Assembly: GCF_044324785.1 (NCBI RefSeq)
Contig: NZ_CP172127.1
Source of the DNA: Escherichia coli
GTDB taxonomy: Bacteria; Pseudomonadota; Gammaproteobacteria; Enterobacterales; Enterobacteriaceae
Direction: 5' to 3' (one strand)
DNA: 64,000 bases
This document shows, one piece after another, positions 22,502 to 42,565 of this stretch. The stretch's first letter is position 1; each line of letters starts with the position of its first letter. A program made the position numbers and the translations under genes. The notes under the pieces are model-generated. The model ran no database searches. It was not told the origin of the DNA and saw only the letters and a list, made by a program, of their open reading frames with translations.

Positions 22502-24128
22502 TAGGTTTCACTTTCGGAATATAGATTGAAAATAAGGTACCGCAGGGATCATTATCTTCGAGAGTGATAACACCACCGCAGCGCGTTACGTAGCTGGCAA
22601 TCAAGTACAACCCAATGCCATGTTCGCCGGGCTCGTCAGCACGCGTACTGACACCCTGCTCAAATATTTTGTCTCGTAGAGACTCTGGAACGCCGCAGCC
22701 CTGATCGGCGACTTCAATCACCACATCATCGCCTTCATCGCTGAGGAATAATTCAACGATCTTGTTTCCTTCATCGCTACGTAGGCTGGCTTCGAAGGCG
22801 TTATCAAGTAAATTGCCAACAATGGCTGCAAACTCGGTGCTGTCCAGTCCTGGCGGCAGTTGCGAAAGCTGACTTCCGGGGACGATGACCATTTTTAGCC
22901 CCAGTTCGCGGGCGCGCTGCACTTTACCAAAAAGCAGCCCCGCCACCTGGCGATCGGCAAACGCCTCGCGCAGGCTATCAATAAGCTGTTGCTGGGCCTG
23001 AGACTCCCCCTGCACCATCGCCAACACGCGATCATACTCTTTCATCTGCAACAGACCATTGAGCGTCGACATCCAATTGAGATGCTCGTGTCGCAATGTG
23101 CGCAGGCTCTCGACGTATTGTTTAATTTGCGTCAGTTGCGCATTGAGGGTGGATATTTCGTCTTTACTACGAAAGCTGATAATGGCCCCCAGCAAATCAT
23201 CACCTGAACGAATAGCTTCCCGGTTGGCAATAACGCTCAGACCGTTAAAGTTCGCCACCACATCCTGACGTTTTTCATCAATCTGTTCGGTAAAGAAATC
23301 GGCGGGCCTGACCACTTCAGCAATGGGTTTACCCAACCATTGCCGTCCGGGGGAACTCAGACCCAGCATCTTTCTTGCGTTACGATTGATGGCGGTAATG
23401 TAACCATGCGGATCCACCGCAATGAGCCCTTCATAAACCGAACTAAACAGCGCCTCTTGCTGACGGACCACGCGTGCGATTTGCTTTGGCTCCATGCCCA
23501 TCATCTGCCGACGGATATGCGCGGCCAGGAACCACGATAGCAACATCAGAATCCCTAACAGCACGACAAACACGCCAGCCATCGGTAATAAAAACTCAGC
23601 CCGCCAGCTATCAATTTTACTCACCAGGTAGCCAATCGACACCACGCCGATGACTTTTCCATCGTCATCAAAGATTGGCGTTTTGGCACGCATCGCCATG
23701 CCAATTGACCCTTTCCCGGTGATGAAGTAGCTCTCTCCTTTCTCCAGCGCGCCCGGTTTGGTGAACTGCATAGGATAACCAATTTTCTCCGGATTAGGAT
23801 GGTAAAGACGAATCGAGTGCCGATCGCCAATCACCACATAATCAAAATCGGTATCTCTTTGTAATTTGTTAGCGATGGTCGCCAGCCTCTTGTAGTCACG
23901 CGTTTTCACTGCGCTGATGATACTGTCATTAGAAGCAATAATTTTTGCCTGATTCATTGCCATGTCGCGCACATGAAGCGTTAAATAGTCCTCAAAACTG
24001 GCCGTAAAATATTGCGCCAGGGCTGCAATGACAAATATTGAGAACACCAGAATCAGCAAAAAGATACGCAGCGGAAATGCCAGTCTTTGGAAAAATGCAA
24101 ACTGTTTATTCTCGTTAAGCTGCAACAT
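22470..24128 (-). CDS. dpiB: Sensor histidine kinase DpiB (CitA)
   Basis: ORF track 22470..24188 trimmed to the ATG giving MLQLNENKQ (552 aa); two TM segments around a periplasmic domain, HATPase_c; 32-nt overlap with dpiA. Confidence 0.92.
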   Translation of the reverse strand: MLQLNENKQFAFFQRLAFPLRIFLLILVFSIFVIAALAQYFTASFEDYLTLHVRDMAMNQAKIIASNDSIISAVKTRDYKRLATIANKLQRDTDFDYVVIGDRHSIRLYHPNPEKIGYPMQFTKPGALEKGESYFITGKGSIGMAMRAKTPIFDDDGKVIGVVSIGYLVSKIDSWRAEFLLPMAGVFVVLLGILMLLSWFLAAHIRRQMMGMEPKQIARVVRQQEALFSSVYEGLIAVDPHGYITAINRNARKMLGLSSPGRQWLGKPIAEVVRPADFFTEQIDEKRQDVVANFNGLSVIANREAIRSGDDLLGAIISFRSKDEISTLNAQLTQIKQYVESLRTLRHEHLNWMSTLNGLLQMKEYDRVLAMVQGESQAQQQLIDSLREAFADRQVAGLLFGKVQRARELGLKMVIVPGSQLSQLPPGLDSTEFAAIVGNLLDNAFEASLRSDEGNKIVELFLSDEGDDVVIEVADQGCGVPESLRDKIFEQGVSTRADEPGEHGIGLYLIASYVTRCGGVITLEDNDPCGTLFSIYIPKVKPNDSSINPIDR

Positions 24129-24507
24129 TGTTTTCCTTGCGGGTTGTCCCGAGCCTCTTTGACGAATGTAATTAAAATGTTGAATCAAAATACATAGATA
24201 TTAAATATAATCGTGGCAAATTTTATTCATTAAATCAATTAAATCACTTAAACCTGCGGGTCATTTCGTAATTACATTAATTAAAAAACTTAAAACCATT
24301 AAATAAATAAAAAACCACTAACTCTATGTGAAATAAATCAAAATTTCACGCTGCAATACTCCTTAGGATGTATAGCGAAAGGAGAAAAAGATATACCTCG
24401 ATCGCCCCCCTTTCTCCCAAGTGAAAATAAAAGGTTATCAGTTTGCAACATCGAACAACATTCGTTGCAAATCGATAACAACATGCACCTTCAGGATACT
24501 ATTTATT

Positions 24508-25566
24508 ATGTTCGGCAATGATATTTTCACCCGTGTAAAACGTTCAGAAAATAAAAAAATGGCGGAAATCGCCCAATTCCTGCATGAAAATGATTTGAGC
24601 GTTGACACCACAGTCGAAGTATTTATTACCGTAACCCGCGATGAAAAGCTTATCGCGTGCGGTGGAATTGCCGGAAATATTATTAAATGCGTTGCTATCA
24701 GTGAATCCGTTCGCGGTGAAGGACTGGCGCTGACATTAGCCACCGAGCTAATTAACCTCGCCTATGAGCGGCACAGCACGCATCTGTTTATTTATACCAA
24801 AACCGAATACGAGGCGCTGTTCCGCCAGTGCGGTTTTTCCACGCTGACCAGTGTACCCGGCGTGATGGTGCTGATGGAAAACAGCGCCACGCGACTGAAA
24901 CGCTATGCCGAATCGCTGAAAAAATTTCGTCATCCAGGGAACAAGATTGGCTGCATTGTGATGAACGCCAATCCCTTTACGAATGGTCACCGTTATCTGA
25001 TTCAACAGGCTGCAGCACAGTGCGACTGGCTGCATCTGTTTTTAGTTAAAGAAGATTCTTCACGCTTTCCCTATGAAGACCGGCTGGATCTGGTGTTAAA
25101 AGGCACCGCCGATATTCCACGCCTGACTGTGCATCGCGGCTCCGAATACATCATCTCCCGCGCTACGTTCCCTTGCTACTTCATTAAAGAACAGAGCGTC
25201 ATTAACCATTGTTACACCGAAATTGATCTGAAGATTTTCCGTCAGTACCTCGCTCCCGCGCTGGGTGTAACTCACCGCTTTGTCGGTACTGAACCCTTTT
25301 GTCGCGTTACCGCCCAGTACAACCAGGATATGCGCTACTGGCTGGAAACGCCGACTATCTCCGCACCGCCCATCGAACTGGTTGAAATTGAGCGGCTGCG
25401 TTACCAGGAGATGCCGATATCCGCTTCCCGGGTACGTCAACTGCTGGCGAAAAACGATCTCACGGCTATCGCGCCGCTGGTCCCTGCAGTCACGCTGCAT
25501 TATTTGCAGAACCTGCTTGAGCACTCCCGCCAGGACGCGGCAGCTCGTCAAAAGACCCCCGCATGA
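24508..25566 (+). CDS. citC: [Citrate (pro-3S)-lyase] ligase
   Basis: ORF track 24421..25566 trimmed to MFGNDIFTRV (352 aa); divergent from dpiB. Confidence 0.92.
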   Translation: MFGNDIFTRVKRSENKKMAEIAQFLHENDLSVDTTVEVFITVTRDEKLIACGGIAGNIIKCVAISESVRGEGLALTLATELINLAYERHSTHLFIYTKTEYEALFRQCGFSTLTSVPGVMVLMENSATRLKRYAESLKKFRHPGNKIGCIVMNANPFTNGHRYLIQQAAAQCDWLHLFLVKEDSSRFPYEDRLDLVLKGTADIPRLTVHRGSEYIISRATFPCYFIKEQSVINHCYTEIDLKIFRQYLAPALGVTHRFVGTEPFCRVTAQYNQDMRYWLETPTISAPPIELVEIERLRYQEMPISASRVRQLLAKNDLTAIAPLVPAVTLHYLQNLLEHSRQDAAARQKTPA

Positions 25567-25580
25567 GAAACAGGTGAAAA

Positions 25581-25877
25581 ATGAAAATAAACCAGCCCGC
25601 CGTTGCAGGCACCCTTGAGTCTGGGGATGTGATGATACGCATCGCCCCACTCGATACGCAGGATATCGACCTGCAAATCAACAGCAGCGTTGAAAAACAG
25701 TTTGGTGATGCCATTCGCACCACCATTCTGGACGTTCTCGCCCGCTACAACGTGCGCGGCGTACAGCTGAATGTCGATGACAAAGGCGCACTGGACTGCA
25801 TTTTACGTGCACGACTGGAAGCCCTGCTGGCACGCGCCAGCGGTATCCCGGCTCTGCCATGGGAGGATTGCCAATGA
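25581..25877 (+). CDS. citD: Citrate lyase acyl carrier protein (gamma subunit)
   Basis: 98 aa. Confidence 0.93.
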
Positions 25878-26782
25878 TTTCCGCTTCGCTGCAACAACGT
25901 AAAACTCGCACCCGCCGCAGCATGTTGTTTGTGCCTGGTGCCAATGCCGCGATGGTCAGTAACTCATTCATCTACCCGGCTGATGCCCTGATGTTTGACC
26001 TCGAAGACTCCGTGGCATTGCGTGAAAAAGACACAGCCCGCCGCATGGTTTACCACGCGCTGCAACATCCGCTGTATCGCGATATTGAAACCATTGTGCG
26101 TGTCAACGCGCTGGATTCCGAATGGGGTGTCAACGACCTGGAAGCCGTCGTTCGCGGTGGTGCGGACGTTGTGCGTCTGCCGAAAACCGATACCGCTCAG
26201 GATGTTCTGGATATCGAAAAAGAGATCCTGCGTATCGAAAAAGCCTGTGGTCGTGAACCCGGCAGCACCGGCCTGCTGGCGGCGATTGAATCTCCGCTGG
26301 GCATTACCCGCGCAGTGGAAATCGCTCACGCTTCCGAGCGTTTGATCGGTATCGCCCTCGGTGCAGAAGACTATGTGCGCAACCTGCGTACAGAACGCTC
26401 CCCGGAAGGAACTGAACTGCTGTTCGCACGCTGTTCCATTTTGCAGGCCGCGCGCTCTGCGGGTATTCAGGCGTTCGATACCGTCTATTCCGACGCTAAT
26501 AACGAAGCCGGATTCCTGCAAGAAGCCGCCCACATCAAACAGCTGGGCTTTGACGGCAAATCGCTGATCAACCCGCGTCAGATTGATCTGCTGCACAACC
26601 TCTACGCACCGACCCAGAAAGAAGTGGATCACGCCCGCCGCGTCGTAGAAGCCGCTGAAGCCGCCGCTCGCGAAGGCCTCGGCGTGGTTTCCCTGAACGG
26701 CAAGATGGTGGACGGTCCGGTTATCGATCGCGCCCGTCTGGTGCTCTCCCGCGCAGAACTTTCCGGCATCCGCGAAGAATAA
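25874..26782 (+). CDS. citE: Citrate lyase beta subunit (citryl-CoA lyase)
   Basis: ORF track 25859..26782 trimmed to [10 protein letters not shown] (302 aa); ATGA overlap with citD. Confidence 0.93.
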
Positions 26783-26792
26783 GGCAATCAAA

Positions 26793-28325
26793 ATGACGCA
26801 GAAAATTGAACAATCTCAACGACAAGAACGGGTAGCGGCCTGGAATCGTCGCGCTGAATGCGATCTTGCCGCTTTCCAGAACTCGCCAAAGCAAACCTAC
26901 CAGGCTGAAAAAGCGCGCGATCGCAAACTGTGCGCCAACCTGGAAGAAGCGATTCGTCGCTCTGGTTTACAGGACGGCATGACTGTTTCCTTCCACCACG
27001 CTTTCCGTGGCGGTGACCTGACCGTCAATATGGTGATGGACGTCATCGCGAAGATGGGCTTTAAAAACCTGACTCTGGCCTCCAGCTCCCTGAGTGATTG
27101 CCATGCGCCGCTGGTAGAACACATTCGCCAGGGCGTGGTTACCCGCATTTATACCTCTGGCCTGCGCGGTCCACTGGCGGAAGAAATCTCCCGTGGTCTG
27201 CTGGCGGAACCGGTGCAAATCCACTCTCACGGCGGACGTGTGCATCTGGTACAGAGCGGCGAACTGGATATCGACGTGGCTTTCCTCGGCGTCCCGTCCT
27301 GTGATGAATTCGGTAATGCCAACGGCTACACCGGTAAAGCCTGCTGCGGCTCCCTCGGCTATGCAATGGTTGATGCCGACAACGCAAAACAGGTTGTGAT
27401 GCTCACTGAAGAACTGCTGCCTTATCCGCATAATCCGGCAAGCATTGAGCAAGATCAGGTTGATCTGATCGTCAAAGTTGATCGCGTTGGCGATGCCGCG
27501 AAAATCGGCGCTGGCGCGACCCGTATGACCACTAACCCGCGCGAACTGCTTATTGCCCGTAGCGCTGCAGATGTGATTGTCAACTCTGGCTACTTCAAAG
27601 AAGGTTTCTCCATGCAAACCGGCACCGGTGGCGCATCGCTGGCGGTAACCCGTTTCCTGGAAGACAAAATGCGTAGCCGCGATATTCGCGCCGACTTCGC
27701 CCTTGGCGGTATTACCGCAACGATGGTTGACCTGCACGAAAAAGGTCTGATCCGCAAACTGCTGGATGTACAGAGCTTTGACAGCCACGCGGCACAATCG
27801 CTGGCCCGTAACCCCAATCACATCGAAATCAGCGCCAACCAGTACGCTAACTGGGGTTCAAAAGGCGCATCGGTTGATCGTCTCGACGTGGTGGTACTGA
27901 GCGCGCTGGAAATTGACACCCAGTTCAACGTTAACGTGCTGACCGGCTCTGACGGCGTACTGCGTGGTGCTTCCGGTGGTCACTGCGATACCGCGATTGC
28001 CTCTGCACTTTCCATCATCGTCGCACCGCTGGTACGCGGTCGTATTCCGACTCTGGTGGATAACGTGCTGACCTGCATCACCCCGGGCTCCAGTGTCGAT
28101 ATTCTGGTCACAGACCACGGTATCGCAGTTAACCCGGCACGTCCGGAACTGGCAGAACGTCTGCAGGAAGCGGGGATCAAGGTGGTTTCTATTGAGTGGC
28201 TGCGTGAACGTGCGCGTCTGCTGACCGGTGAACCACAGCCGATTGAATTCACCGACCGCGTCGTTGCCGTTGTGCGTTACCGCGATGGCTCGGTGATCGA
28301 TGTTGTGCATCAGGTGAAGGAATAA
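26793..28325 (+). CDS. citF: Citrate lyase alpha subunit (citrate CoA-transferase)
   Basis: 510 aa. Confidence 0.95.
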   Translation: MTQKIEQSQRQERVAAWNRRAECDLAAFQNSPKQTYQAEKARDRKLCANLEEAIRRSGLQDGMTVSFHHAFRGGDLTVNMVMDVIAKMGFKNLTLASSSLSDCHAPLVEHIRQGVVTRIYTSGLRGPLAEEISRGLLAEPVQIHSHGGRVHLVQSGELDIDVAFLGVPSCDEFGNANGYTGKACCGSLGYAMVDADNAKQVVMLTEELLPYPHNPASIEQDQVDLIVKVDRVGDAAKIGAGATRMTTNPRELLIARSAADVIVNSGYFKEGFSMQTGTGGASLAVTRFLEDKMRSRDIRADFALGGITATMVDLHEKGLIRKLLDVQSFDSHAAQSLARNPNHIEISANQYANWGSKGASVDRLDVVVLSALEIDTQFNVNVLTGSDGVLRGASGGHCDTAIASALSIIVAPLVRGRIPTLVDNVLTCITPGSSVDILVTDHGIAVNPARPELAERLQEAGIKVVSIEWLRERARLLTGEPQPIEFTDRVVAVVRYRDGSVIDVVHQVKE

Positions 28326-28328
28326 GCC

Positions 28329-29733
<1,405 letters not shown>

Positions 29734-29783
29734 TTATTTAAGCACTTGATAAATTTGGAAATATTAATTTTCGGAGAACTCGT

Positions 29784-31247
29784 ATGTCTTTAGCAAAAGA
29801 TAATATATGGAAACTATTGGCCCCACTGGTGGTGATGGGTGTCATGTTTCTTATCCCTGTCCCCGACGGTATGCCGCCGCAGGCATGGCATTACTTCGCT
29901 GTGTTTGTGGCAATGATTGTCGGCATGATCCTCGAGCCAATTCCGGCAACAGCGATCAGTTTTATTGCGGTTACTATTTGCGTTATTGGCAGTAATTACC
30001 TGCTCTTTGATGCCAAAGAATTAGCTGCCCCAGCGTTTAATGCGCAAAAACAGGCGCTGAAATGGGGCCTGGCTGGTTTTTCCAGCACCACGGTATGGCT
30101 GGTATTTGGCGCATTTATTTTTGCATTAGGGTATGAAGTTTCCGGGTTAGGTCGTCGCATTGCCCTTTTCCTGGTGAAATTCATGGGCAAACGCACGCTG
30201 ACGTTGGGTTATGCGATTGTCATTATCGACATTCTGCTGGCACCGTTTACACCGTCCAACACCGCGCGTACTGGCGGGACCGTTTTTCCGGTCATTAAAA
30301 ACCTGCCGCCGTTGTTTAAATCATTCCCGAACGATCCGTCCGCGCGTCGTATTGGCGGCTATTTGATGTGGATGATGGTCATTAGTACCAGTCTGAGTTC
30401 GTCCATGTTTGTCACCGGTGCGGCACCAAACGTGCTGGGTCTGGAGTTCGTCAGCAAAATTGCCGGTATCCAGATTAGCTGGTTGCAGTGGTTCCTCTGC
30501 TTCCTGCCGGTTGGCGTTATCTTACTTATCATTGCGCCGTGGCTTTCCTACGTGCTTTACAAACCGGAAATCACACACAGTGAAGAAGTAGCAACCTGGG
30601 CGGGTGATGAACTAAAAACCATGGGTGCGCTGACACGCAGAGAGTGGACGCTGATTGGCCTTGTATTGCTCAGCTTAGGTTTGTGGGTATTTGGCAGTGA
30701 AGTCATTAATGCTACTGCGGTAGGTCTGCTGGCAGTTTCACTAATGCTGGCCCTGCACGTTGTGCCGTGGAAAGACATTACCCGCTATAACAGCGCATGG
30801 AACACGCTGGTCAACCTGGCAACTCTGGTTGTGATGGCTAACGGCCTGACTCGTTCTGGTTTTATTGACTGGTTCGCCGGTACCATGAGTACGCACCTGG
30901 AAGGATTCTCACCAAACGCAACGGTGATTGTACTGGTTCTGGTGTTCTACTTTGCACACTACCTGTTTGCCAGCCTGTCTGCGCACACCGCAACCATGCT
31001 GCCGGTTATTCTGGCCGTCGGTAAAGGTATTCCGGGCGTACCAATGGAACAACTGTGTATCCTGCTGGTGCTGTCTATCGGTATCATGGGCTGTCTGACG
31101 CCGTATGCAACCGGTCCTGGGGTGATTATTTACGGCTGTGGCTATGTGAAATCAAAAGATTACTGGCGTCTTGGCGCAATCTTCGGGGTGATTTACATCT
31201 CTATGTTGCTGTTGGTTGGCTGGCCGATTCTCGCCATGTGGAACTAA
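29784..31247 (+). CDS. citT: Citrate:succinate antiporter (DASS family)
   Basis: 487 aa polytopic transporter at the end of the citrate lyase operon. Confidence 0.94.
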   Translation: MSLAKDNIWKLLAPLVVMGVMFLIPVPDGMPPQAWHYFAVFVAMIVGMILEPIPATAISFIAVTICVIGSNYLLFDAKELAAPAFNAQKQALKWGLAGFSSTTVWLVFGAFIFALGYEVSGLGRRIALFLVKFMGKRTLTLGYAIVIIDILLAPFTPSNTARTGGTVFPVIKNLPPLFKSFPNDPSARRIGGYLMWMMVISTSLSSSMFVTGAAPNVLGLEFVSKIAGIQISWLQWFLCFLPVGVILLIIAPWLSYVLYKPEITHSEEVATWAGDELKTMGALTRREWTLIGLVLLSLGLWVFGSEVINATAVGLLAVSLMLALHVVPWKDITRYNSAWNTLVNLATLVVMANGLTRSGFIDWFAGTMSTHLEGFSPNATVIVLVLVFYFAHYLFASLSAHTATMLPVILAVGKGIPGVPMEQLCILLVLSIGIMGCLTPYATGPGVIIYGCGYVKSKDYWRLGAIFGVIYISMLLLVGWPILAMWN

Positions 31248-31277
31248 TACGTTCGCCAAACGCTGAATAAATCATCA

Positions 31278-31313
31278 CGCCCGCCAGGTAAGCCCACCTG
31301 GCGGGCTTTTTTA
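31278..31313 (+). terminator. Strong intrinsic terminator after citT
   Basis: GCCCGCCAGGT-aagccc-ACCTGGCGGGC followed by TTTTTT. Confidence 0.85.
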
Positions 31314-31360
31314 TGATTTAATAGATAGTATTCAGTGTATGTATGAGTTCCACACCCATT

Positions 31361-32167
31361 ATGAAAGCATTCTGGCGTAACGCCGCGTTGCTCGCGGTTT
31401 CTCTGCTTCCCTTCTCTTCTGCCAACGCCGTAGCGTTGCAGGCAAAACAGTATGGCGATTTTGATCGCTATGTCCTGGCCCTCTCCTGGCAAACCGGATT
31501 TTGCCAGAGTCAACACGATCGAAATCGTAACGAACGAGATGAATGTCGCCTGCAAACCGAAACGACCAACAAAGCTGATTTTCTGACCGTACATGGTCTG
31601 TGGCCAGGATTGCCTAAATCGGTTGCTGCCCGTGGTGTTGATGAACGCCGCTGGATGCGCTTCGGTTGCGCTACTCGCCCAATCCCGAATCTACCAGAAG
31701 CGCGCGCCAGCCGAATGTGTTCATCGCCGGAAACCGGGTTATCGCTGGAAACGGCCGCTAAACTAAGTAAAGTCATGCCAGGAGCTGGCGGACGTTCCTG
31801 CCTGGAACGCTACGAATATGCCAAACACGGTGCCTGCTTTGGTTTTGATCCAGACGCATACTTCGGCACGATGGTACGCCTGAATCAAGAAATTAAAGAG
31901 AGCGAAGCCGGAAAATTCCTTGCGGATAACTACGGTAAGACAGTGAGCCGCCGTGACTTTGACGCCGCCTTTGCCAAAAGCTGGGGAAAAGAGAACGTGA
32001 AAGCAGTTAAGCTAACGTGTCAGGGTAACCCTGCGTATTTGACTGAAATTCAGATCTCGATCAAAGCTGACGCCATCAACGCTCCGCTTTCTGCAAACTC
32101 ATTCTTGCCACAACCACACCCAGGCAACTGTGGCAAAACCTTTGTGATTGATAAAGCAGGTTATTAA
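31361..32167 (+). CDS. rna: Ribonuclease I (RNase T2 family, periplasmic)
   Basis: ORF track 31343..32167 trimmed to MKAFWRNAALLA (268 aa); signal peptide; HGLWP catalytic motif. Confidence 0.93.
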   Translation: MKAFWRNAALLAVSLLPFSSANAVALQAKQYGDFDRYVLALSWQTGFCQSQHDRNRNERDECRLQTETTNKADFLTVHGLWPGLPKSVAARGVDERRWMRFGCATRPIPNLPEARASRMCSSPETGLSLETAAKLSKVMPGAGGRSCLERYEYAKHGACFGFDPDAYFGTMVRLNQEIKESEAGKFLADNYGKTVSRRDFDAAFAKSWGKENVKAVKLTCQGNPAYLTEIQISIKADAINAPLSANSFLPQPHPGNCGKTFVIDKAGY

Positions 32168-32259
32168 TCCTCTGATTTACAAAAGACGCTAATTCGTCTT
32201 CCATAAACCATGACGATTAAGATTTATACATAATGCGCTGCATTGAGGAATTCCCTGAA

Positions 32260-32275
32260 TGTGACGCAAATCACT
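32260..32275 (+). promoter_or_regulatory. CRP-like site TGTGA-N6-TCACT with a downstream -10-like hexamer
   Basis: 9 of 10 match to TGTGA-N6-TCACA; TATCAT-like hexamer about 25-30 bp downstream. Confidence 0.35.
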
Positions 32276-32316
32276 TCAAAGAGTGAGCAACAGTCAGTAT
32301 CATCATGTGAGTTAAA

Positions 32317-32348
32317 CCCTCGCCGCCTGACGGTGAGGGTTTTCTTTT
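32317..32348 (+). terminator. Strong hairpin plus U-tract between rna and rnk
   Basis: CCCTCGCCG-cctga-CGGTGAGGG (9-bp stem with one G-U pair) followed by TTTTCTTTT; lies about 50 nt upstream of the rnk ATG. Confidence 0.6.
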
Positions 32349-32396
32349 GGGTATGTTTATCTGCGACACTCGCAGTACCGACGACATGGAGTAAAA

Positions 32397-32807
32397 ATGT
32401 CCAGACCAACTATCATCATTAACGACCTGGATGCCGAACGCATCGATATTCTGCTGGAGCAACCCGCCTATGCTGGTTTGCCAATCGCCGACGCGTTAAA
32501 CGCAGAGTTGGATCGCGCCCAAATGTGTTCGCCAGAACAGATGCCACACGACGTGGTGACAATGAACAGCCGGGTTAAATTCCGCAATCTTAGCGATGGC
32601 GAAGTGCGTGTGCGCACGCTGGTGTATCCGGCAAAAATGACCGATAGCAATACTCAGCTTTCCGTTATGGCTCCGGTAGGTGCCGCACTGCTGGGACTGC
32701 GCGTTGGCGATTCCATTCACTGGGAACTTCCGGGCGGCGTTGCAACCCACCTTGAAGTGCTGGAACTCGAATACCAGCCAGAAGCTGCTGGCGACTACCT
32801 GCTTTAA
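32397..32807 (+). CDS. rnk: Regulator of nucleoside diphosphate kinase Rnk (GreA/GreB-like)
   Basis: 136 aa; GGAG-type ribosome-binding site upstream. Confidence 0.92.
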
Positions 32808-32840
32808 TCCCATCTGCACAAGCGATAACTCGCTTTGCCC

Positions 32841-32866
32841 AGAGGATGCACTCGCATCCTCTTTCC
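32841..32866 (+). terminator. Hairpin terminator after rnk
   Basis: AGAGGATGC-actc-GCATCCTCT followed by a T-rich tail. Confidence 0.55.
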
Positions 32867-32949
32867 GCTCAAATATCAACCAGATTTATCATTTTGCTCT
32901 TAAGCGCAGCATTCTAATCTGAACTGGTTATTCATCTGCGGAACCTCAT

Positions 32950-33039
32950 ATGAGCGAAGCTCTCGGTATCACTGCATTTTATATATTCATAGCCGCAATT
33001 ATTGTTGCTGCAGTGCTATACCTTGAACAACGCTGGTAG
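32950..33039 (+). CDS. Hypothetical 29-aa single-TM small protein (MSEALGITAFYIFIAAIIVAAVLYLEQRW)
   Basis: Read by hand; below the ORF-track length cutoff; ATG to TAG; strongly hydrophobic core; weak ribosome-binding site. Confidence 0.25.
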   Translation: MSEALGITAFYIFIAAIIVAAVLYLEQRW

Positions 33040-33162
33040 CGCCTGGTTTTATTTATTTTCCAGCTCAATAGCAAATTCAGATCAAATCAGCCTCGCAAAT
33101 CATAGATTCATAACCAATAATGTGCTGTTATGTATACATGCAAAAACAAGGAGAGAATGCTT

Positions 33163-33591
33163 ATGTACAAAACAATCATCATGCCAGTGGATGTTTTCGA
33201 AATGGAATTGAGCGACAAAGCGGTTCGCCACGCTGAATTCCTCGCCCAGGATGACGGAGTTATTCATCTACTTCACGTACTACCGGGGTCAGCCAGCCTG
33301 AGCCTGCACCGTTTTGCCGCTGATGTGCGTCGTTTTGAAGAGCATCTGCAACATGAAGCAGAAGAACGTCTGCAAACGATGGTCAGCCACTTCACCATCG
33401 ATCCTTCCCGCATTAAGCAACATGTCCGTTTTGGTAGTGTGCGGGATGAAGTTAACGAGTTAGCGAAAGAACTTGATGCAGATGTAGTAGTGATTGGTTC
33501 GCGTAACCCATCAATTTCAACTCATCTGTTGGGTTCTAACGCCTCGAGCGTAATCCGCCACGCCAATTTGCCGGTGCTGGTTGTGCGTTAA
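33163..33591 (+). CDS. uspG: Universal stress protein UspG
   Basis: ORF track 33130..33591 trimmed to [10 protein letters not shown] (142 aa); AAGGAGA ribosome-binding site 8 nt upstream. Confidence 0.93.
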
Positions 33592-33605
33592 TTGCCAGAA
33601 TAAGT

Positions 33606-33645
33606 CTCCCGCCCTGCCCGGAGCCATCCCGGCGGGGCTTTTTAT
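33606..33645 (+). terminator. Terminator after uspG
   Basis: CCCGCC...GGCGGG stem followed by CTTTTTATT. Confidence 0.55.
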
Positions 33646-33651
33646 TGCCAT

Positions 33652-33690
33652 AAAAAAGCCGCCAGGTTTGACCCCGGCGGCTAAGCAATT
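33652..33690 (-). terminator. Terminator after ahpF (minus strand)
   Basis: GCCGCCAGG...CCGGCGGC stem with an A-run on the plus strand, i.e. a U-run on the minus-strand transcript. Confidence 0.55.
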
Positions 33691-33711
33691 GCAGGTGAAT
33701 CTTACTTCTTC

Positions 33712-35277
33712 TTATGCTGTTTTGGTGCGAATCAGGTAGTCAAAAGCACTCAGAGAGGCTTTGGCACCTTCGCCAGTGGCGATGATGATCTGCTTGTACG
33801 GAACCGTTGTACAGTCACCCGCTGCGAACACGCCTTTGACGTTGGTTTCGCATTTCGCATCAATGATAATCTCGCCCATGCGGTTACGTTCGACTGCGCC
33901 TTCGAGCCAGTTGGTGTTCGGCAGCAGACCAATCTGCACGAAAATACCGGCCAGTTCGATGTTGTGAATATCGCCGCTGACACGATCGCGATATTCCAGA
34001 CCAACGACTTTGCTGCCGTCGCCTTTCACTTCCGTAGTTTGCGCATTCAGAATAATGTCGACGTTTTTCAGGCTACGTAGTTTGTCCTGTAGAACCTGGT
34101 CGGCTTTCATTTCTGGCGCAAATTCCAGCAGAGTTACGTGCTCAACGATACCCGCCAGGTCGATTGCTGCTTCCACGCCGGAGTTACCGCCGCCGATAAC
34201 CGCTACGCGTTTGCCTTTAAACAGCGGGCCGTCGCAGTGCGGGCAGTAGGTCACGCCTTTGGTGCGATACTGATCTTCGCCCGGAACGTTCATGTTGCGC
34301 CATTTTGCACCGGTCGCCACGATAATGCTGCGTGCTTTCAGTACCGCGCCAGAAGCTGTTTCAATCTGATGCAGGCCACCTTCAACCGCTGCCGGGATCA
34401 GTTTGCTGGCGCTCTGGCTGTCGATCACATCAACGTCGTATTCATCAACGTGAACTTTCAGCGCACCTGCCAGTTTCTGGCCTTCGGTCTTCGGTACAGA
34501 AATGTAGTTTTCGATATCAACAGTATCGAGGATCTGACCACCAAAACGTTCGCCCATCAGACCGGTACGGATGCCTTTACGTGCGGAGTAAATTGCTGCC
34601 GCTGCACCCGCCGGGCCGGAACCAACGATTAATACGTCATAAGCATCACGCTTGTTCAGCTCTTCTGCCGCACGTTTTTCCGCGCCAGTATCAATTTTGG
34701 CGACGATTTCAGTCAACGTCATGCGACCCTGACCAAACTCTTTCCCGTTTACGAACACTGCCGGAACGCCCATCACGTTGCGATCGGTGATTTCGTTCTG
34801 GAAGGTGCCGCCGTCAATTGCAGTGTGCTTGATGCGCGGGTTCAGTACGCTCATCAGGTTCAGCGCCTGCACCACGTCCGGGCAGTTGTGGCAAGAGAGC
34901 GAGTAATAGGTTTCGAATTCAAAATCACCGTCAATATGGCGAATCTGCTCCAGCAGAGACTGCGCTTCTTTCGACGGATGACCACCGGTCCACAACAACG
35001 CCAGTACCAGCGAGGTAAACTCGTGGCCCAGCGGGGAACCTGCAAAACGTGGCCCCTGGTTAGAACCTGGGTTAGTGATCAGGAAAGACGGCTTACGCAC
35101 CGGCAAGCTGTTATCTTCTTTAAAGGTGACTTTGTCTGACAGTTCTGCGATTTCAGCCAACAGTTCCTTGATTTCTGCCGATTTAGCGCTGTCATCCAGC
35201 GTGGCAATTAACTCAACAGGCTTGGTCAATTTCTCAAGGTAAGCCTTGAGTTGAGTTTTCATATTTGTGTCGAGCAT
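33712..35277 (-). CDS. ahpF: Alkyl hydroperoxide reductase subunit F
   Basis: ORF track 33712..35307 trimmed to [10 protein letters not shown] (521 aa); redox Cys pairs CHNC and CPHCDG; FAD/NAD-binding GxGxxG motifs. Confidence 0.95.
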
Positions 35278-35447
35278 GTTTATCTCCTGGGCTTTAAACA
35301 TCATCATGCAAGCGGCCTCTGCGGCTACCTGGATGCAGCTTGCATCATGGTGCGGGGAAGAAAATCGGGTGCCGCAGCACCCGAAGAATTAGGTGAATTT
35401 CCGAAGTATTTCGCGCCGGAGTTGGTAGCGCGAAAGACGAAGGAAAT

Positions 35448-36011
35448 TTAGATTTTACCAACCAGGTCCAGAGACGGAGCCAGAGTTGCTTCACCTTCTT
35501 TCCATTTAGCCGGGCAAACTTCACCTGGGTGAGAAGCTACGTACTGTGCTGCTTTGATTTTACGCAGCAGGTCAGACGCGTCACGGCCAATGCCTTCAGC
35601 GGTAACTTCGATTGCCTGGATGATACCCTGCGGGTCAACAACGAAGGTCGCACGGTCAGCCAGACCTTCATCTTCACGCATGTTGTCGAAGTTACGGGTC
35701 AGGGCGCCAGTCGGGTCGCCGATCATCGCATATTTGATTTTAGCGATGGTTTCAGAGCTGCTGTGCCATGCTTTGTGGGTGAAGTGAGTATCAGTAGATA
35801 CTGCGTATACGTCTACACCCAGTTTCTGCAGTTCTTCGTAGTGGTCAGCAACGTCACCCAGTTCGGTCGGGCATACGAAAGTAAAGTCAGCCGGGTAGAA
35901 GAAGAAGACGCTCCAGCGGCCTTCGGTATCTTTTTCGGTGATTTCGATGAATTCGCCGTTTTTGAATGCCTGGTTTTTAAAAGGTTTAATTTTGGTGTTA
36001 ATCAAGGACAT
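35448..36011 (-). CDS. ahpC: Alkyl hydroperoxide reductase subunit C (2-Cys peroxiredoxin)
   Basis: 187 aa; peroxidatic Cys in FTFVCPTE. Confidence 0.96.
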
Positions 36012-36382
36012 CTATACTTCCTCCGTGTTTTCGATGAGATGTAAGGTAACCAATTTTTGCCGATTCGGCTAATGCGTTTCCATTATCAAATCGATAAGTT
36101 TTACCTTACAACCTTCGTAAGACAACTTTGTGAACTTTGCACCGCCAGCGGCGATAAAAAGTAAAATGGCCCCCTTTCCAGGTGACCGTGTAATCTGAAC
36201 TACCCTTTGGTATCTTCAGCGCCTGCCTGCAGGCTGAGGTGTTGCCCTTACAAAGGCAACAACGACATGGATTACAACACCCTCATAAACAAAGGGCAAT
36301 CACCTGATCTAAGCTCTTACCTATGACAGTGATAGGTTATGCCTTTTACCCGACTTTTGCACTGACTGAAAAGGACAAATTA
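36012..36382. promoter_or_regulatory. Divergent ahpC / dsbG control region; OxyR site expected but not pinpointed
   Basis: 371-bp spacer between divergent genes; ahpCF and dsbG are OxyR-regulated in E. coli; I cannot place the operator by eye. Confidence 0.4.
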
Positions 36383-37129
36383 ATGTTAAAAAAGATACTT
36401 TTACTGGCTCTGCTTCCTGCAATCGCCTTCGCAGAGGAACTTCCTGCTCCAGTAAAAGCGATTGAAAAACAGGGCATTACAATCATCAAAACGTTCGATG
36501 CCCCCGGAGGAATGAAAGGTTATCTCGGAAAGTATCAGGATATGGGCGTCACCATCTACCTGACTCCAGATGGTAAGCACGCTATCTCTGGTTACATGTA
36601 CAACGAGAAAGGTGAAAACCTGAGTAACACACTTATCGAAAAAGAAATTTACGCACCAGCCGGACGCGAAATGTGGCAACGGATGGAACAATCCCACTGG
36701 CTCCTCGACGGTAAAAAAGATGCGCCGGTCATTGTCTACGTTTTCGCCGATCCGTTCTGCCCATATTGTAAACAGTTCTGGCAGCAGGCGCGCCCGTGGG
36801 TAGATTCTGGCAAAGTGCAATTAAGAACATTGTTGGTTGGCGTTATCAAGCCAGAAAGCCCGGCGACAGCAGCGGCAATTCTTGCCTCCAAAGATCCCGC
36901 AAAAACCTGGCAAGAATATGAAGCCTCTGGTGGCAAGCTTAAGCTAAACGTGCCTGCAAACGTAAGTACAGAGCAAATGAAAGTGTTAAGCGACAACGAA
37001 AAACTCATGGACGATCTGGGGGCAAATGTCACACCAGCTATCTATTACATGAGTAAGGAAAATACACTGCAACAGGCCGTGGGGTTGCCCGATCAGAAAA
37101 CGCTTAATATCATTATGGGGAATAAATAA
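36383..37129 (+). CDS. dsbG: Periplasmic thiol:disulfide oxidoreductase DsbG
   Basis: ORF track 36323..37129 trimmed to [10 protein letters not shown] (248 aa); signal peptide; CPYC active site. Confidence 0.93.
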
Positions 37130-37336
37130 AAGATAATTCATGGATGGTTGAAATATATCCCTATTTTTCAACCATCCTAAAAAAGCATGAATTGCTCGCT
37201 CTGCCCTAAGTGGCTGTGCTATTTTAGAAAAACTTAATTCTGAATTAAGCAAAAAAACATAATACAAATAAATACAACAGCAACATTATTGATCAAGTGA
37301 ATGATTTATAGAAGAGATAATATAACGGAGTATGTT

Positions 37337-38239
37337 ATGGCGAATCTTTATGACCTAAAAAAATTTGATCTGAATTTACTGGTCATATTTGAGTGTATTT
37401 ATCAACATCTCAGCATTAGTAAAGCGGCAGAATCATTATATATAACGCCCTCTGCTGTTAGTCAGTCGTTACAACGTTTACGTGCGCAATTTAATGACCC
37501 GTTATTCATTCGCTCAGGGAAAGGTATCGCGCCGACTACGACAGGGTTAAATCTGCATCATCATCTTGAGAAAAATCTCAGAGGCATTGAACAAACGATC
37601 AATATTGTTAATAAGTCTGAGCTAAAGAAAAATTTTATTATCTACGGTCCTCAGCTTATTTCTTGTACTAATAACAACATGCTAATCCGCTGTCTTAGAC
37701 AAGATACTTCAATCGATATAGAATGCCATGACATACTGCTTTCAGCTGAAAATGCCGAAGAACTGTTGGTTCAACGCAAAACTGACCTGGCAATTACACT
37801 ACAACCAGTAATTAGCCGCTCTGTCATCTGCATGCCGTTACATACTATTCGCAATTCTCTTATATGTAGCAACAAACATCCTCGTATTACCGATACCAGT
37901 AACTATGAACAAATTATCGCCGAAGAATTCACCTTGTTGATATCTAAATCAGCAGGGATTGACGAAATTCAAATGGACATAGATGAACGTTTTATGAACC
38001 GTAAAGTTTCATTTCGCAGTTCTTCTTTGTTGACGATAATTAATAGTATTTCTGTTACTGACTTATTGGGCATTGTGCCCACCGAACTGTACGATTTACA
38101 TCGTGATTTTTTGAAGTTACAAGAGATAAAACTGGAACGACCACTTCCTGCGGTTAAACTTTATATTTCCTATAACAAGGCTTCGTTGAACAACCTTGTC
38201 TTCTCACGATTCATAGATCGTTTAAATGATAGCTTCTGA
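37337..38239 (+). CDS. ybdO: LysR-family transcriptional regulator YbdO
   Basis: ORF track 37301..38239 trimmed to MANLYDLKKFD (300 aa); HTH; AT-rich, low-GC coding sequence. Confidence 0.88.
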   Translation: MANLYDLKKFDLNLLVIFECIYQHLSISKAAESLYITPSAVSQSLQRLRAQFNDPLFIRSGKGIAPTTTGLNLHHHLEKNLRGIEQTINIVNKSELKKNFIIYGPQLISCTNNNMLIRCLRQDTSIDIECHDILLSAENAEELLVQRKTDLAITLQPVISRSVICMPLHTIRNSLICSNKHPRITDTSNYEQIIAEEFTLLISKSAGIDEIQMDIDERFMNRKVSFRSSSLLTIINSISVTDLLGIVPTELYDLHRDFLKLQEIKLERPLPAVKLYISYNKASLNNLVFSRFIDRLNDSF

Positions 38240-38385
38240 TTTATTACCACGGATAAATGTTATATTACGCATCAATTGATTCATTGTGTGAATATAAAAT
38301 AATGTGCTCTATCTTGCTTCGTTTACCCTATAATTAGCGGATTCATCTCACGAGTCGCCCCGTAACGTTCAGAGAGCGTTTTCAG

Positions 38386-39606
38386 ATGTCTATTTATAAA
38401 ATCCCGCTTCCACTGAATATTCTGGAAGCTGCAAAAGAACGTATTACCTGGACACTTAACACCCTACCCCGCGTCTGCGTTTCTTTTTCGGGTGGTAAAG
38501 ATTCCGGATTAATGCTGCATCTGACCGCCGAACTTGCCCGACAAATGGGCAAAAAAATTTGTGTTTTATTTATCGACTGGGAAGCTCAGTTCTCTTGCAC
38601 CATTAACTATGTTCAGTCCCTGCGCGAGTTGTACACCGATGTCATCGAAGAGTTTTACTGGGTTGCGCTCCCGCTTACAACGCAAAATTCCCTATCACAA
38701 TACCAACCCGAATGGCAGTGCTGGGAACCTGATGTCGAATGGGTACGTCAGCCCCCGCAAGATGCGATAACCGATCCTGACTTTTTCTCCTTTTACCAGC
38801 CTGGCATGACCTTCGAACAATTTGTGCGTGAGTTTGCCGAATGGTTTTCGCAAAAACGTCCGGCGGCGATGATGATCGGCATCCGTGCGGATGAGTCCTA
38901 CAACCGTTTTGTCGCCATCGCCAGTTTAAATAAACAACGTTTTGCCGATGATAAGCCCTGGACTACTGCCGCACCAGGCGGTCATAGCTGGTACATTTAC
39001 CCCATCTACGACTGGAAAGTCGCTGATATCTGGACCTGGTATGCTAACAATCAACAGCTCTGTAACCCACTGTATAATATAATGTATCAGGCAGGCGTCC
39101 CTCTGCGCCATATGCGAATTTGCGAACCTTTTGGCCCGGAGCAACGACAAGGATTATGGCTCTATCACGTTATCGAACCGGATCGCTGGGCTGCTATGTG
39201 CGCACGAGTCAGCGGGGTAAAAAGTGGCGGCATTTACGCCGGACATGACAACCATTTTTATGGTCATCGGAAAATCCTCAAGCCCGAACATTTAGACTGG
39301 CAGGAGTATGCATTATTGCTACTCAACAGCATGCCGGAGAAAACAGCTGAGCATTATCGCAATAAAATCGCCATTTATTTGCACTGGTATCAGAAAAAAG
39401 GCATCGAGGTTCCACAAACCCAGCAAGGGGACATTGGCGCGAAAGATATCCCCTCCTGGCGGCGAATATGCAAAGTTTTACTCAATAACGATTACTGGTG
39501 TCGGGCATTATCATTTAGCCCGACCAAAGCGAAGAACTATCAGCGTTATAACGAACGAATAAAAGGAAAACGTCAGGAATGGGGGATACTATGCAACAAC
39601 GATTAA
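38386..39606 (+). CDS. ybdN: PAPS-reductase-like PP-loop ATP pyrophosphatase fused to a DUF3440-type C-terminal domain (IbrA-like)
   Basis: 406 aa; PP-loop motif SFSGGKDS near the N-terminus. Confidence 0.9.
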   Translation: MSIYKIPLPLNILEAAKERITWTLNTLPRVCVSFSGGKDSGLMLHLTAELARQMGKKICVLFIDWEAQFSCTINYVQSLRELYTDVIEEFYWVALPLTTQNSLSQYQPEWQCWEPDVEWVRQPPQDAITDPDFFSFYQPGMTFEQFVREFAEWFSQKRPAAMMIGIRADESYNRFVAIASLNKQRFADDKPWTTAAPGGHSWYIYPIYDWKVADIWTWYANNQQLCNPLYNIMYQAGVPLRHMRICEPFGPEQRQGLWLYHVIEPDRWAAMCARVSGVKSGGIYAGHDNHFYGHRKILKPEHLDWQEYALLLLNSMPEKTAEHYRNKIAIYLHWYQKKGIEVPQTQQGDIGAKDIPSWRRICKVLLNNDYWCRALSFSPTKAKNYQRYNERIKGKRQEWGILCNND

Positions 39607-40208
39607 CGCAGGATTTAACCCAATTTCTCGCCAGCTTGCCGGAAGACGATCGCATCAAAGCGATTAATGAAATCCGCATGGCGATCCATAAGGTCAGTCC
39701 TTTTCGTGAAGAGCCGGTGGATTGTGTTTTGTGGGTGAAAAATAGCCAGCTCGTGCCGAATGATTACAATCCCAATAATGTGGCACCACCAGAGAAGAAA
39801 CTGCTGCAAAAATCCATTGAAATAGATGGCTTTACGCAACCCATTGTGGTCACGCATACAGATAAAAATGCCCTGGAAATTGTTGATGGTTTTCACCGCC
39901 ATGAAATAGGTAAAGGCTTATCATCGTTAAAATTACGCTTAAAAGGTTATTTGCCAGTAACCTGTCTGGAAGGTACACGTAATCAACGCATCGCCGCGAC
40001 TATTCGTCATAACCGCGCCCGTGGTCGCCATCAAATCACTGCCATGTCCGAAATTGTTCGTGAACTCAGCCAGTTGGGATGGGACGATCATAAAATCGGC
40101 AAAGAGCTGGGAATGGACAGCGACGAGGTGCTGCGCTTGAAACAAATTAACGGCCTGCAAGAACTGTTTGCCGACCGTCAATATTCCCGCGCCTGGACGG
40201 TTAAATAA
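39579..40208 (+). CDS. ybdM: ParB/sulfiredoxin-like nuclease-domain protein (IbrB-like)
   Basis: 209 aa; 28-nt overlap with ybdN suggests translational coupling. Confidence 0.88.
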   Translation: MGDTMQQRLTQDLTQFLASLPEDDRIKAINEIRMAIHKVSPFREEPVDCVLWVKNSQLVPNDYNPNNVAPPEKKLLQKSIEIDGFTQPIVVTHTDKNALEIVDGFHRHEIGKGLSSLKLRLKGYLPVTCLEGTRNQRIAATIRHNRARGRHQITAMSEIVRELSQLGWDDHKIGKELGMDSDEVLRLKQINGLQELFADRQYSRAWTVK

Positions 40209-41369
40209 CTACAGCTGGCGCAGGCGTTCAGCGGCAGCCAGCAACGTCGATTCCTTCTTGGCAAAACAGAGACGAATCAGTTTATGGGGGAAGGGATCGG
40301 CGCAAAACACCGACAGCGGGATCGCCGCTACGCCGTGCTCCCGCGTCAGCCACTGGCAAAACTCAACATCATCCAGCGTAGACACGGCGCTGTAATCCAC
40401 CAGCAAAAAGTATGTACCTTCGCACGGTAAAATCTCCAGCCGGCTTTCATTTAAAGCATTCACCAGAATATCGCGCTTCTGGCGATAAAAGTCCGGTAAC
40501 GCAAGATAATGCTCAGGTTCTGCACGTAGCATATCGGCAAGTGCCAGCTGTGCCGGGGTATTCACCGAAAAGGTCAGATACTGATGTACCTTGCGAATTT
40601 CGGCACTGATGGGCGCTGGCGCAACGCAATAACCCACTTTCCAGCCGGTCATATGATAGGTCTTGCCAAATGAAGAAACTGCCACCGCCCGCTCACGCAG
40701 CTGCGGATGCGCCAGCACGCTGGCATGGCCCTGTTGTGAAAAGTTGATGTGCTCGTAGACTTCATCGCTAATGACAAAAATCTCGTGCCCGCCGATCGCC
40801 TGCCACAGAGCGGAGAAATCAGCCTGCTGCCAGACAGTTGCACTGGGGTTATGCGGGGTGTTGAGGATCACCAGTCGGGTGCGCTCGCTTAACAATGCGG
40901 CAAATTCCTGCCAGTCCACGCGAAAATGCGGTGGTTGCAGTGCCATACGTTTCACTATTCCCCCCGAAAGCGCGATGGCGGGCGCGTAACTGTCATAGCT
41001 GGGATCAAAGCAGATCACTTCATCACCATTGCGCACCAATGCGGTAATCGCTGCATATAACGCTTCCGTCGCCCCTGCCGTTACGGTGATATCGCTATCG
41101 GCATCCGGTTGATAGCCATACAGACGTTCCGTTTTCTGAGCAATCGCCTCGCGCAAGGCCTGCACGCCAGTCATAGGCGCGTATTGGTTTGCCCCTTGGT
41201 CAACATGGTACGCCAGCCGCTCCTGCAAATAGCGCGGACCATCAAAATCAGGAAAGCCTTGCGACAGGTTAATCGCCTGGTGTTGCTGCGCCAGCGCGCT
41301 CATCTGGGTGAAAATAGTGGTGCCAAGTTGTGGAAGTTTGCTTTGTGGAATCAGAGGGTTATTTGTCAT
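40209..41369 (-). CDS. ybdL: PLP-dependent methionine aminotransferase YbdL
   Basis: ORF track 40209..41405 trimmed to MTNNPLIPQS (386 aa); fold-type I aminotransferase with Lys in SFGKTY. Confidence 0.92.
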   Translation of the reverse strand: MTNNPLIPQSKLPQLGTTIFTQMSALAQQHQAINLSQGFPDFDGPRYLQERLAYHVDQGANQYAPMTGVQALREAIAQKTERLYGYQPDADSDITVTAGATEALYAAITALVRNGDEVICFDPSYDSYAPAIALSGGIVKRMALQPPHFRVDWQEFAALLSERTRLVILNTPHNPSATVWQQADFSALWQAIGGHEIFVISDEVYEHINFSQQGHASVLAHPQLRERAVAVSSFGKTYHMTGWKVGYCVAPAPISAEIRKVHQYLTFSVNTPAQLALADMLRAEPEHYLALPDFYRQKRDILVNALNESRLEILPCEGTYFLLVDYSAVSTLDDVEFCQWLTREHGVAAIPLSVFCADPFPHKLIRLCFAKKESTLLAAAERLRQL

Positions 41370-41476
41370 TTTTTGTTGTGCCTGACGAAGTTGTGTTGAA
41401 GGCACTATAACACGATGCTAGTATTTGGCAATCAAGACGTTTAGATGTCTAAATAAAACAATAAGGACAACACAAC

Positions 41477-42565
41477 ATGCCTCACAATCCTATCCGCGTG
41501 GTCGTCGGCCCGGCTAACTACTTTTCACATCCAGGAAGTTTCAATCACCTGCATGATTTTTTCACTGATGAACAACTTTCTCGCGCGGTGTGGGTCTACG
41601 GCGAACGCGCCATTGCTGCGGCGCAAACCAAACTTCCGCCAGCGTTTGAACTGCCAGGGGCAAAGCATATTTTGTTTCGCGGTCATTGCAGCGAAAGCGA
41701 TGTACAGAAACTGGCGGCTGACTCCGGTGACGACCGCAGCGTGGTGATTGGCGTCGGCGGCGGCGCACTGCTCGACACCGCGAAAGCCCTCGCCCGCCGT
41801 CTCGGTCTGCCGTTTGTTGCCGTTCCGACGATCGCCGCTACCTGCGCCGCCTGGACACCGCTCTCTGTCTGGTATAACGATGCCGGACAGGCGCTGCATT
41901 ATGAGATTTTCGACGACGCCAATTTTATGGTGCTGGTGGAACCGGAGATTATCCTCAATGCGCCGCAAGAATATCTGCTGGCGGGGATCGGTGACACGCT
42001 GGCGAAATGGTATGAAGCGGTGGTGCTGGCCCCGCAACCAGAAACGTTGCCGTTAACCGTGCGCCTGGGGATTAATAACGCGCAGGCCATTCGCGACGTC
42101 TTGTTAAACAATAGCGAACAGGCGCTTGCCGATCAGCAAAATCAACAGTTAACGCAATCATTTTGCGATGTGGTGGATGCGATTATCGCCGGAGGTGGAA
42201 TGGTCGGTGGTCTGGGCGATCGTTTTACGCGTGTGGCGGCGGCCCATGCCGTGCATAACGGTCTGACCGTGCTGCCGCAAACCGAGAAGTTTCTTCACGG
42301 TACCAAAGTCGCCTACGGAATTCTGGTGCAAAGCGCCTTGCTGGGTCAGGATGATGTGCTGGCACAATTAACCGGGGCGTATCAGCGTTTTCATCTGCCG
42401 ACTACGCTGGCGGAGCTGGAAGTGGATATCAATAATCAGGCGGAGATCGACAAAGTGATTGCCCACACCTTACGTCCGGTGGAATCCATTCATTACCTGC
42501 CAGTCACGCTGACACCAGATACGTTACGTGCAGCGTTCGAAAAAGTGGAATCGTTTAAAGCCTGA
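41477..42565 (+). CDS. ybdH: Iron-containing alcohol / hydroxycarboxylate dehydrogenase YbdH
   Basis: 362 aa; GVGGGALLDTAKA NAD-binding motif of the Fe-ADH / glycerol dehydrogenase family. Confidence 0.9.
   Translation: MPHNPIRVVVGPANYFSHPGSFNHLHDFFTDEQLSRAVWVYGERAIAAAQTKLPPAFELPGAKHILFRGHCSESDVQKLAADSGDDRSVVIGVGGGALLDTAKALARRLGLPFVAVPTIAATCAAWTPLSVWYNDAGQALHYEIFDDANFMVLVEPEIILNAPQEYLLAGIGDTLAKWYEAVVLAPQPETLPLTVRLGINNAQAIRDVLLNNSEQALADQQNQQLTQSFCDVVDAIIAGGGMVGGLGDRFTRVAAAHAVHNGLTVLPQTEKFLHGTKVAYGILVQSALLGQDDVLAQLTGAYQRFHLPTTLAELEVDINNQAEIDKVIAHTLRPVESIHYLPVTLTPDTLRAAFEKVESFKA

Follow-up and report, generated by a model that had tools for sequence, protein, structure and literature searches.

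Two described small proteins of Escherichia coli provide the frame for the locus considered here. The first, YldA of strain K-12, is one of 36 small proteins that could be detected after SPA tags had been placed on the chromosome (VanOrsdel et al. 2018, PMC6001520, Table 1); it was seen in rich medium, expressed from its own locus (PMC6001520). In the papers that name it, yldA appears as a detected protein, as a gene whose expression rises under fluoride stress, and as the partner of ybdR in a predicted convergent overlap; ExcludonFinder names ybdR-yldA as a convergent pair (PMC12288877). We found no published function for YldA. The K-12 gene lies 137 nt after rnk, encodes MAEAFYILIGFLIMAAIIVMAVLYLENHS, and converges on ybdR, the stop codons of the two genes being 3 nt apart. 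The second, YoaI, has 34 residues, resides in the membrane, and both binds and activates EnvZ, a sensor kinase (Vellappan et al., PMC11429745). Glu31, located in the cytoplasmic tail of YoaI, is required for both EnvZ binding and activation (PMC11429745).

We analyzed a 64,000-nucleotide stretch of E. coli DNA (contig NZ_CP172127.1; hereafter, the window). An earlier note, made from the letters of this stretch, had pointed to an unusually compact interval between rnk and uspG from which ybdR appeared to be absent and which held a short hydrophobic open reading frame (ORF). The extent of the interval, the end of rnk, the start of uspG, and the position of the ORF were all given exactly in that note. 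Its readings of the ORF as a deletion scar, a genuine small protein, or a relative of type I toxins fared differently, as set out below.

The rnk-uspG spacer and its 29-codon gene

The gene order around the spacer is citT (29784..31247), rna, rnk, a 355-bp spacer, and uspG, followed by ahpF and ahpC on the opposite strand. The rnk coding sequence (32397..32807, plus strand) specifies a 136-residue nucleoside diphosphate kinase regulator, as given by the ORF list and by the RefSeq annotation of identical DNA, and its nucleotide sequence shows no difference between the window and K-12. Upstream of rnk is a full-length match to the Enterobacteria rnk leader (Rfam RF01771; 32243..32351, plus strand; 124.9 bits against a gathering score of 50, model positions 1-109), a known cis-regulatory element whose function is still poorly understood. 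The spacer spans 32808..33162, between the end of rnk at 32807 and the uspG ATG at 33163. The uspG coding sequence (33163..33591, plus strand) encodes the 142-residue universal stress protein G, based on the RefSeq annotation and on 98% identity to K-12 UspG by tblastn. Farther downstream, just upstream of ahpC, the minus strand carries a match to STnc70, an enterobacterial sRNA (RF02069; 36156..36249; 44.1 bits against a gathering score of 40). When positions 20000..44000 were compared with complete RefSeq E. coli genomes, one genome (strain N3) matched at 99% or above (99.1%), and the other matches listed were at 98.5%. Because a single genome matches these 24 kb at that level, the source strain comes from a lineage with few sampled members, although many genomes share its exact rnk-uspG spacer.

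Within the spacer, a hairpin follows rnk at 32841..32862 (plus strand), with a 9-bp stem (AGAGGAUGC/GCAUCCUCU, 32841..32849 pairing with 32854..32862), an ACUC loop, and a trailing UUUCC. Its fold energy is -15.5 kcal/mol (z = -4.4), and none of 200 shuffles folded as well. The hairpin falls within the 61 nt common to both E. coli haplotypes described below, where identity to K-12 is 98%. The earlier note had called it the rnk terminator. The structure is real, but the terminator scan made no call there owing to the short T-run and the weak U-tract (UUUCC). At the other end of the spacer, a uspG-proximal region (33088..33162, plus strand), defined from a multiple alignment of compact spacers and a table of segment identities, is alignable across genera, with or without ybdR, although it is only 61% identical to K-12. 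This region presumably holds the uspG promoter and ribosome-binding site (RBS). A sigma-70 consensus scan returned no promoter site on either strand of the spacer (1.5 expected by chance), and Rfam searched at permissive E-values returned only a chance snoRNA match below its gathering score. Neither a terminator after the small ORF (fold z = 0.32) nor significant structure in its 5' region (z = -0.57) was found.

The ORF itself occupies 32950..33039 on the plus strand and comprises 29 codons plus TAG. It encodes a predicted small single-helix membrane protein, MSEALGITAFYIFIAAIIVAAVLYLEQRW. The ATG is 142 nt beyond the rnk stop, on the same strand, and a Shine-Dalgarno-like GGAA, read from the sequence, stands 6 nt before it (32940..32943). 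Upon comparison of the rnk-to-uspG interval with 5426 complete E. coli genomes by megablast, the RefSeq/PGAP name for this ORF was found to be yldA, "small membrane protein YldA." Thus, the ORF was unlisted, as the earlier note had it, in the ORF track available to that reader, but it is annotated in RefSeq. The product scores 59 bits on the NCBIfam equivalog model NF041476, for which the cut-off is 45 (E = 3.2e-16; residues 1-29 on profile positions 1-29). On Pfam PF23689 (YldA-like), it falls below the gathering score, at 22.9 bits against 27, whereas K-12 YldA reaches 73.6 bits. The Pfam model appears to be tuned to the K-12 type, and we take the shortfall as a sign of a narrow model, not of a lack of homology. 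Size alone is not informative, as the window contains 123 ATG-initiated ORFs of 25-35 codons; among them, this ORF ranks first in hydrophobicity by a wide margin (best Kyte-Doolittle mean over 19 residues, 2.67, compared with 1.51 for the next). The model match, hydrophobicity, and conservation together favor the small single-helix membrane protein that the earlier note had described.

The ORF at 32950..33039 is almost certainly a real yldA gene. The gene is already known, having a name, curated NCBIfam and Pfam models, and a protein product detected in 2018. Given that K-12 carries yldA beside ybdR, the ORF is not a product of ybdR loss. For the allele present in the window, translation, membrane location, and topology are probable, judging by the K-12 allele, YoaI, and conservation. 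In the form in which the earlier note gave it, the observation matters little, given that the gene is named and that ybdR is absent from a third of complete genomes. Two side results may be of modest use for work on small proteins: the deep split between two haplotypes of yldA and the uspG promoter region, and the relationship of the encoded protein to YoaI.

Two haplotypes between rnk and uspG

The placement of ybdR between uspG and rnk in K-12, as given in the earlier note, is correct, and tblastn with K-12 YbdR finds no ybdR in the window. Alignment of the spacer to K-12 and other E. coli genomes defined a haplotype-specific block, here termed W type, at 32869..33222, which replaces ~1.7 kb of K-12 sequence. 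In K-12, this space is taken up by a K-type yldA, by ybdR and the intergenic region between ybdR and uspG, and by ~60 nt at the start of uspG. The W block has a sharp boundary on its left side, whereas on its right side it fades inside the first ~20 codons of uspG. By blastn, similarity of the spacer to K-12 is limited to its first 61-72 nt, and from 32869 to ~33222 the two E. coli haplotypes are essentially unalignable. Identity to K-12 is 53% upstream of yldA, 60% within yldA, and 61% in the 75 nt before uspG. Within uspG, it reaches 88% over the first 60 nt and 94% thereafter. A second patch diverged from K-12 is present within uspG at 33417..33555 (78-86% identity in 50-nt windows, with flanks at 96-100%); it looks like a separate small recombination tract, making uspG a mosaic. 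Between the W and K alleles of yldA, synonymous sites are saturated (pS = 0.80), a value above the 0.57-0.63 that separates the window from W-like Citrobacter genomes. At the protein level, 14 of the 29 YldA residues differ between W and K, nearly all of them in the N-terminal two-thirds.

Both haplotypes are common. The haplotype-specific 282 nt of the window (32869..33150) were recovered at 95% identity or above from 1816 of 5426 complete E. coli genomes (1816-1818 for the W type, ~33%), and the K-12-specific 1613 nt from 3605 (~66%), so that the W and K types account for all but a handful of the 5426. Beyond E. coli, all three Escherichia genomes sampled (E. albertii and the representatives of two further species) are of the W type, with a spacer of 353-355 bp and with 83-97% identity in every sub-segment, in line with the flanking genes; the W block of E. 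albertii is 83-92% identical to that of the window. Both arrangements have counterparts in Citrobacter, with R56, NCU1, Awk 4, and S646 being W-like and AUH, HRGM_0066, and C. sedlakii being K-like.

The ybdR-less arrangement also occurs in other genera besides Escherichia. In Enterobacter and Lelliottia, ybdR was removed by at least three different, independent clean deletions with differing end points, and in E. asburiae TN152 ~67 nt of the ybdR 3' end remain. Pairs of genomes from Enterobacter, Lelliottia, and K-like Citrobacter display clean deletion junctions, unlike the window. Loss of ybdR is therefore recurrent and constitutes ordinary accessory-gene variation; within Escherichia, the compact form is a separate, old haplotype. 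We consider it likely that the two statements hold jointly, namely that the ORF is yldA and that the window carries this old W haplotype rather than a recent deletion of the K-12 form. Our searches of the literature on ybdR, uspG, and rnk found nothing on this polymorphism.

Two rare sequences combine elements of both types. E. coli HH97 (NZ_CP116409.1; positions 2825..3492 of the locus as retrieved) has a haplotype found in 1 of the 5426 genomes, with a YldA of 46 residues. There, codons 1-27 of a K-12-type yldA are joined to the 3' end of a W-type yldA plus 59 nt (91% identical to window positions 33026..33098), and the fused gene is followed by a degenerate remnant of ybdR codons 1-67 that is 84% identical to K-12 and oddly C-poor. 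Recombination, a third lineage, and assembly errors are all possibilities for the HH97 haplotype. The second case is a 67-residue ORF (P0001) at positions 2561..2960 of the locus retrieved from metagenome scaffold ERZ28624427, a single 4-kb contig from one sample. In it, codons 1-19 of a W-type yldA are joined, at a short AGCAATT microhomology, to the upstream region of a K-type yldA and the whole of that gene, and ybdR follows. P0001 is either a genuine recombinant between W and K or an artifact of assembling two strains that occurred together.

As for how two such haplotypes came to coexist, our tentative view, to which we give slightly less than even credence, is that W is the vertical Escherichia state and that the K block was imported from another enterobacterium. 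On this view, homologous recombination through rnk and uspG would have brought the K-type yldA, ybdR, and a different uspG promoter into an ancestor of E. coli, and the K block would later have spread to two-thirds of the species. Alternatively, both haplotypes would descend from a polymorphism predating the genus. Vertical descent of W is favored by its presence in E. albertii and two other Escherichia species and by a divergence from E. albertii that resembles that of the flanks (rnk, 94%; yldA, 92%; uspG upstream region, 92%). The sharp left breakpoint and a right one that decays inside uspG, as a recombination tract would, agree with this history, as does the occurrence of both haplotype types in Citrobacter. 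However, the identity of K-12 YbdR to its counterparts in Salmonella and C. sedlakii (92-93%) is close to that of Rnk, which also fits vertical descent of ybdR. Moreover, none of the sampled species is close enough to be the donor of the K block; the best reached 68-75% nucleotide identity (E. fergusonii was not in the sample).

A bolder interpretation, and in our estimation an unlikely one, is that the rnk-uspG interval is a long-lived dimorphic locus. The W and K haplotypes of yldA and the uspG promoter region, diverged to saturation at synonymous sites, coexist at ~1:2 in E. coli and have counterparts in Citrobacter, a pattern that would imply balancing selection or repeated exchange between genera. 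Expression of uspG would then differ between haplotypes owing to the upstream 75 nt being only 61% identical, and the two YldA alleles could tune a two-component system differently between E. coli lineages. The latter suggestion derives from the alleles being so different and from YldA being a YoaI paralog that keeps the kinase-contacting glutamate.

Selection on yldA and the status of the ORF

To place yldA in its family context, we used a locus sample of 80 species-representative genomes fetched with Rnk as the anchor. The gene is exactly 29 codons long in 37 loci and starts 126-147 nt past the rnk stop in most. These 37 loci derive from Escherichia, Citrobacter, Enterobacter, Lelliottia, Leclercia, Pseudenterobacter, Phytobacter, and Kosakonia (eight named genera), plus four unassigned genomes. 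Six residues, M1, E3, A21, V22, L25, and E26, are invariant across 34 YldA sequences. Averaged over pairs of sequences, the differences per site are 0.27, 0.20, and 0.49 for codon positions 1, 2, and 3, and dN/dS is ~0.1. Between the window and E. albertii, the encoded proteins are identical (pN = 0) despite a pS of 0.34. All 38 yldA loci inspected for a Shine-Dalgarno-like signal have a purine triplet (GGA, GGG, GAG, or AGG) at -17 to -5 relative to the ATG. Taken together, the comparative evidence argues strongly for yldA as a translated gene under selection, and the earlier suggestion of a genuine small protein is upheld on these grounds.

The distribution of yldA is patchy and narrow. No yldA is present in either of the sampled Salmonella subspecies, in the C. 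freundii complex or Kluyvera, or in several Enterobacter and Leclercia 29361; among these, the two Salmonella subspecies, several Enterobacter, and Leclercia 29361 keep ybdR. All four combinations of yldA and ybdR presence were found in the 80-genome sample. Because yldA has been lost in many lineages, its role is dispensable. A profile search of 1.84 billion representative proteins, with the 46-residue fused YldA of strain HH97 as the first alignment row, gave only 49 matches at E <= 1e-3. We retrieved 33 of the 49, including the top 28, and all were YldA/YoaI-like peptides or longer mis-called ORFs containing such peptides. Judged from these matches, the family is a narrow, enterobacterial one. 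Among 72,556 plasmids, tblastn with the peptide gave no match at E up to 1.

A resemblance to type I toxins had also been proposed, by which the ORF would encode a small, hydrophobic, membrane-damaging peptide held in check by an antisense RNA. We regard this as very improbable. YldA does share its small size and one hydrophobic helix with Hok, Ldr, Ibs, TisB, ShoB, DinQ, and Zor, the K-12 arrangement would allow overlapping transcripts from a convergent ybdR that ends 3 nt from yldA, and overexpression of the paralogous YoaI lengthens lag phase (PMC11429745). However, YldA matches no type I toxin in sequence: NCBIfam at E < 0.1 returns only YldA and YoaI, and Pfam does likewise, apart from noise. 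Among the described RNA families in Rfam, no antisense RNA or sRNA, for which the earlier note had proposed to look, matched the spacer, and the promoter scan came out negative on both strands. Although the W haplotype no longer has a convergent ybdR, YldA is under strong purifying selection. The gene is also single-copy, syntenic, and absent from the plasmids searched, being neither multi-copy nor mobile, and K-12 YldA accumulates detectably from its own locus in rich medium without apparent cost (PMC6001520).

Least credible of all is a recent deletion scar of the K-12 arrangement with a chance or decaying ORF, for although ybdR is missing exactly at this locus, true ybdR scars are known from other genera (as in E. 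asburiae TN152, Enterobacter, and Lelliottia), and the minus strand bears a weak, non-significant blastx similarity to YbdR residues 37-46 (E = 0.68 for E. albertii; 5.2 for the window), the part of the 355-bp spacer that can be aligned to K-12 is just 61-72 nt long, yldA synonymous sites are saturated relative to the K-12 allele, the same 353-355 bp spacer recurs in E. albertii and other Escherichia species, and the ORF is under purifying selection. Under a simple deletion, both flanks should align to a clean junction; they do not, and homology resumes only at the uspG RBS. Separately, the minus strand of 33099..33135 was considered as a decayed ybdR remnant, based on the HH97 hybrid and blastx, and was rejected (E >= 0.68); in the alignment, this segment corresponds to the uspG-proximal region, which is conserved whether or not a haplotype has ybdR.

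Relationship to YoaI and a candidate role

When YldA was searched against NCBIfam, the sole other model matched was that of YoaI (E = 4e-7). The window YldA scores 30 bits on the YoaI equivalog NF041475, below the cut-off of 45, and is thus a homolog rather than a member. In the reverse direction, YoaI-type sequences match the YldA model with E-values as low as 8.8e-10, and there are intermediate sequences that both models recognize. Profile-profile comparison with hhalign gave a probability of 97.6%, aligning YldA 2-29 with YoaI 7-34 over 28 columns. YoaI sequences score 19-41 bits on the YldA HMM, compared with never more than 12.7 bits for 3000 composition-preserving shuffles per sequence and no more than 4.3 bits for 11 unrelated small membrane proteins used as controls. 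In the alignment, the invariant Ser26, Val27, and Glu31 of YoaI correspond to the invariant Ala21, Val22, and Glu26 of YldA. By these comparisons, YldA is a paralog of YoaI. The case for homology rests on 28 aligned residues of a hydrophobic helix, but the controls argue against a pure composition effect. In searchable papers, we found no mention of a YldA-YoaI paralogy with a common glutamate.

The paralogy and the aligned invariant residues lead us to a tentative proposal, which we think somewhat less likely than not, that YldA may act as a single-pass modulator of a larger membrane protein, plausibly a sensor kinase. By analogy with YoaI, YldA would insert in the inner membrane as a single pass, with its N-terminus outside and a short C-terminal tail in the cytoplasm. 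The invariant juxtamembrane motif A21-V22-x3-E26 would then be its contact with a larger membrane protein, probably a sensor kinase. The common glutamate gives work on YldA a concrete starting point. Because the YldA allele and the uspG promoter region of an E. coli strain belong to one of two widely diverged types, findings made in K-12 should not be extended by default to strains with the compact haplotype.

Compared with the K-12 system, the yldA of the window has the same position (~140 nt after rnk), strand, and length of 29 codons, and its product has the same predicted single helix and invariant residues; tblastn aligns 26 of the 29 residues at 58% identity. The window lacks a convergent ybdR, and the 3' antisense overlap proposed for K-12 is consequently impossible here. 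Compared with YoaI, YldA is alike in its single helix and its short, charged C-terminal tail, in which the glutamate is followed by an arginine or a polar residue. The two differ in locus and in length, with YldA being five residues shorter at the N-terminus, and at the C-terminus, where YldA has a nearly conserved tryptophan and YoaI has Thr-Gly.
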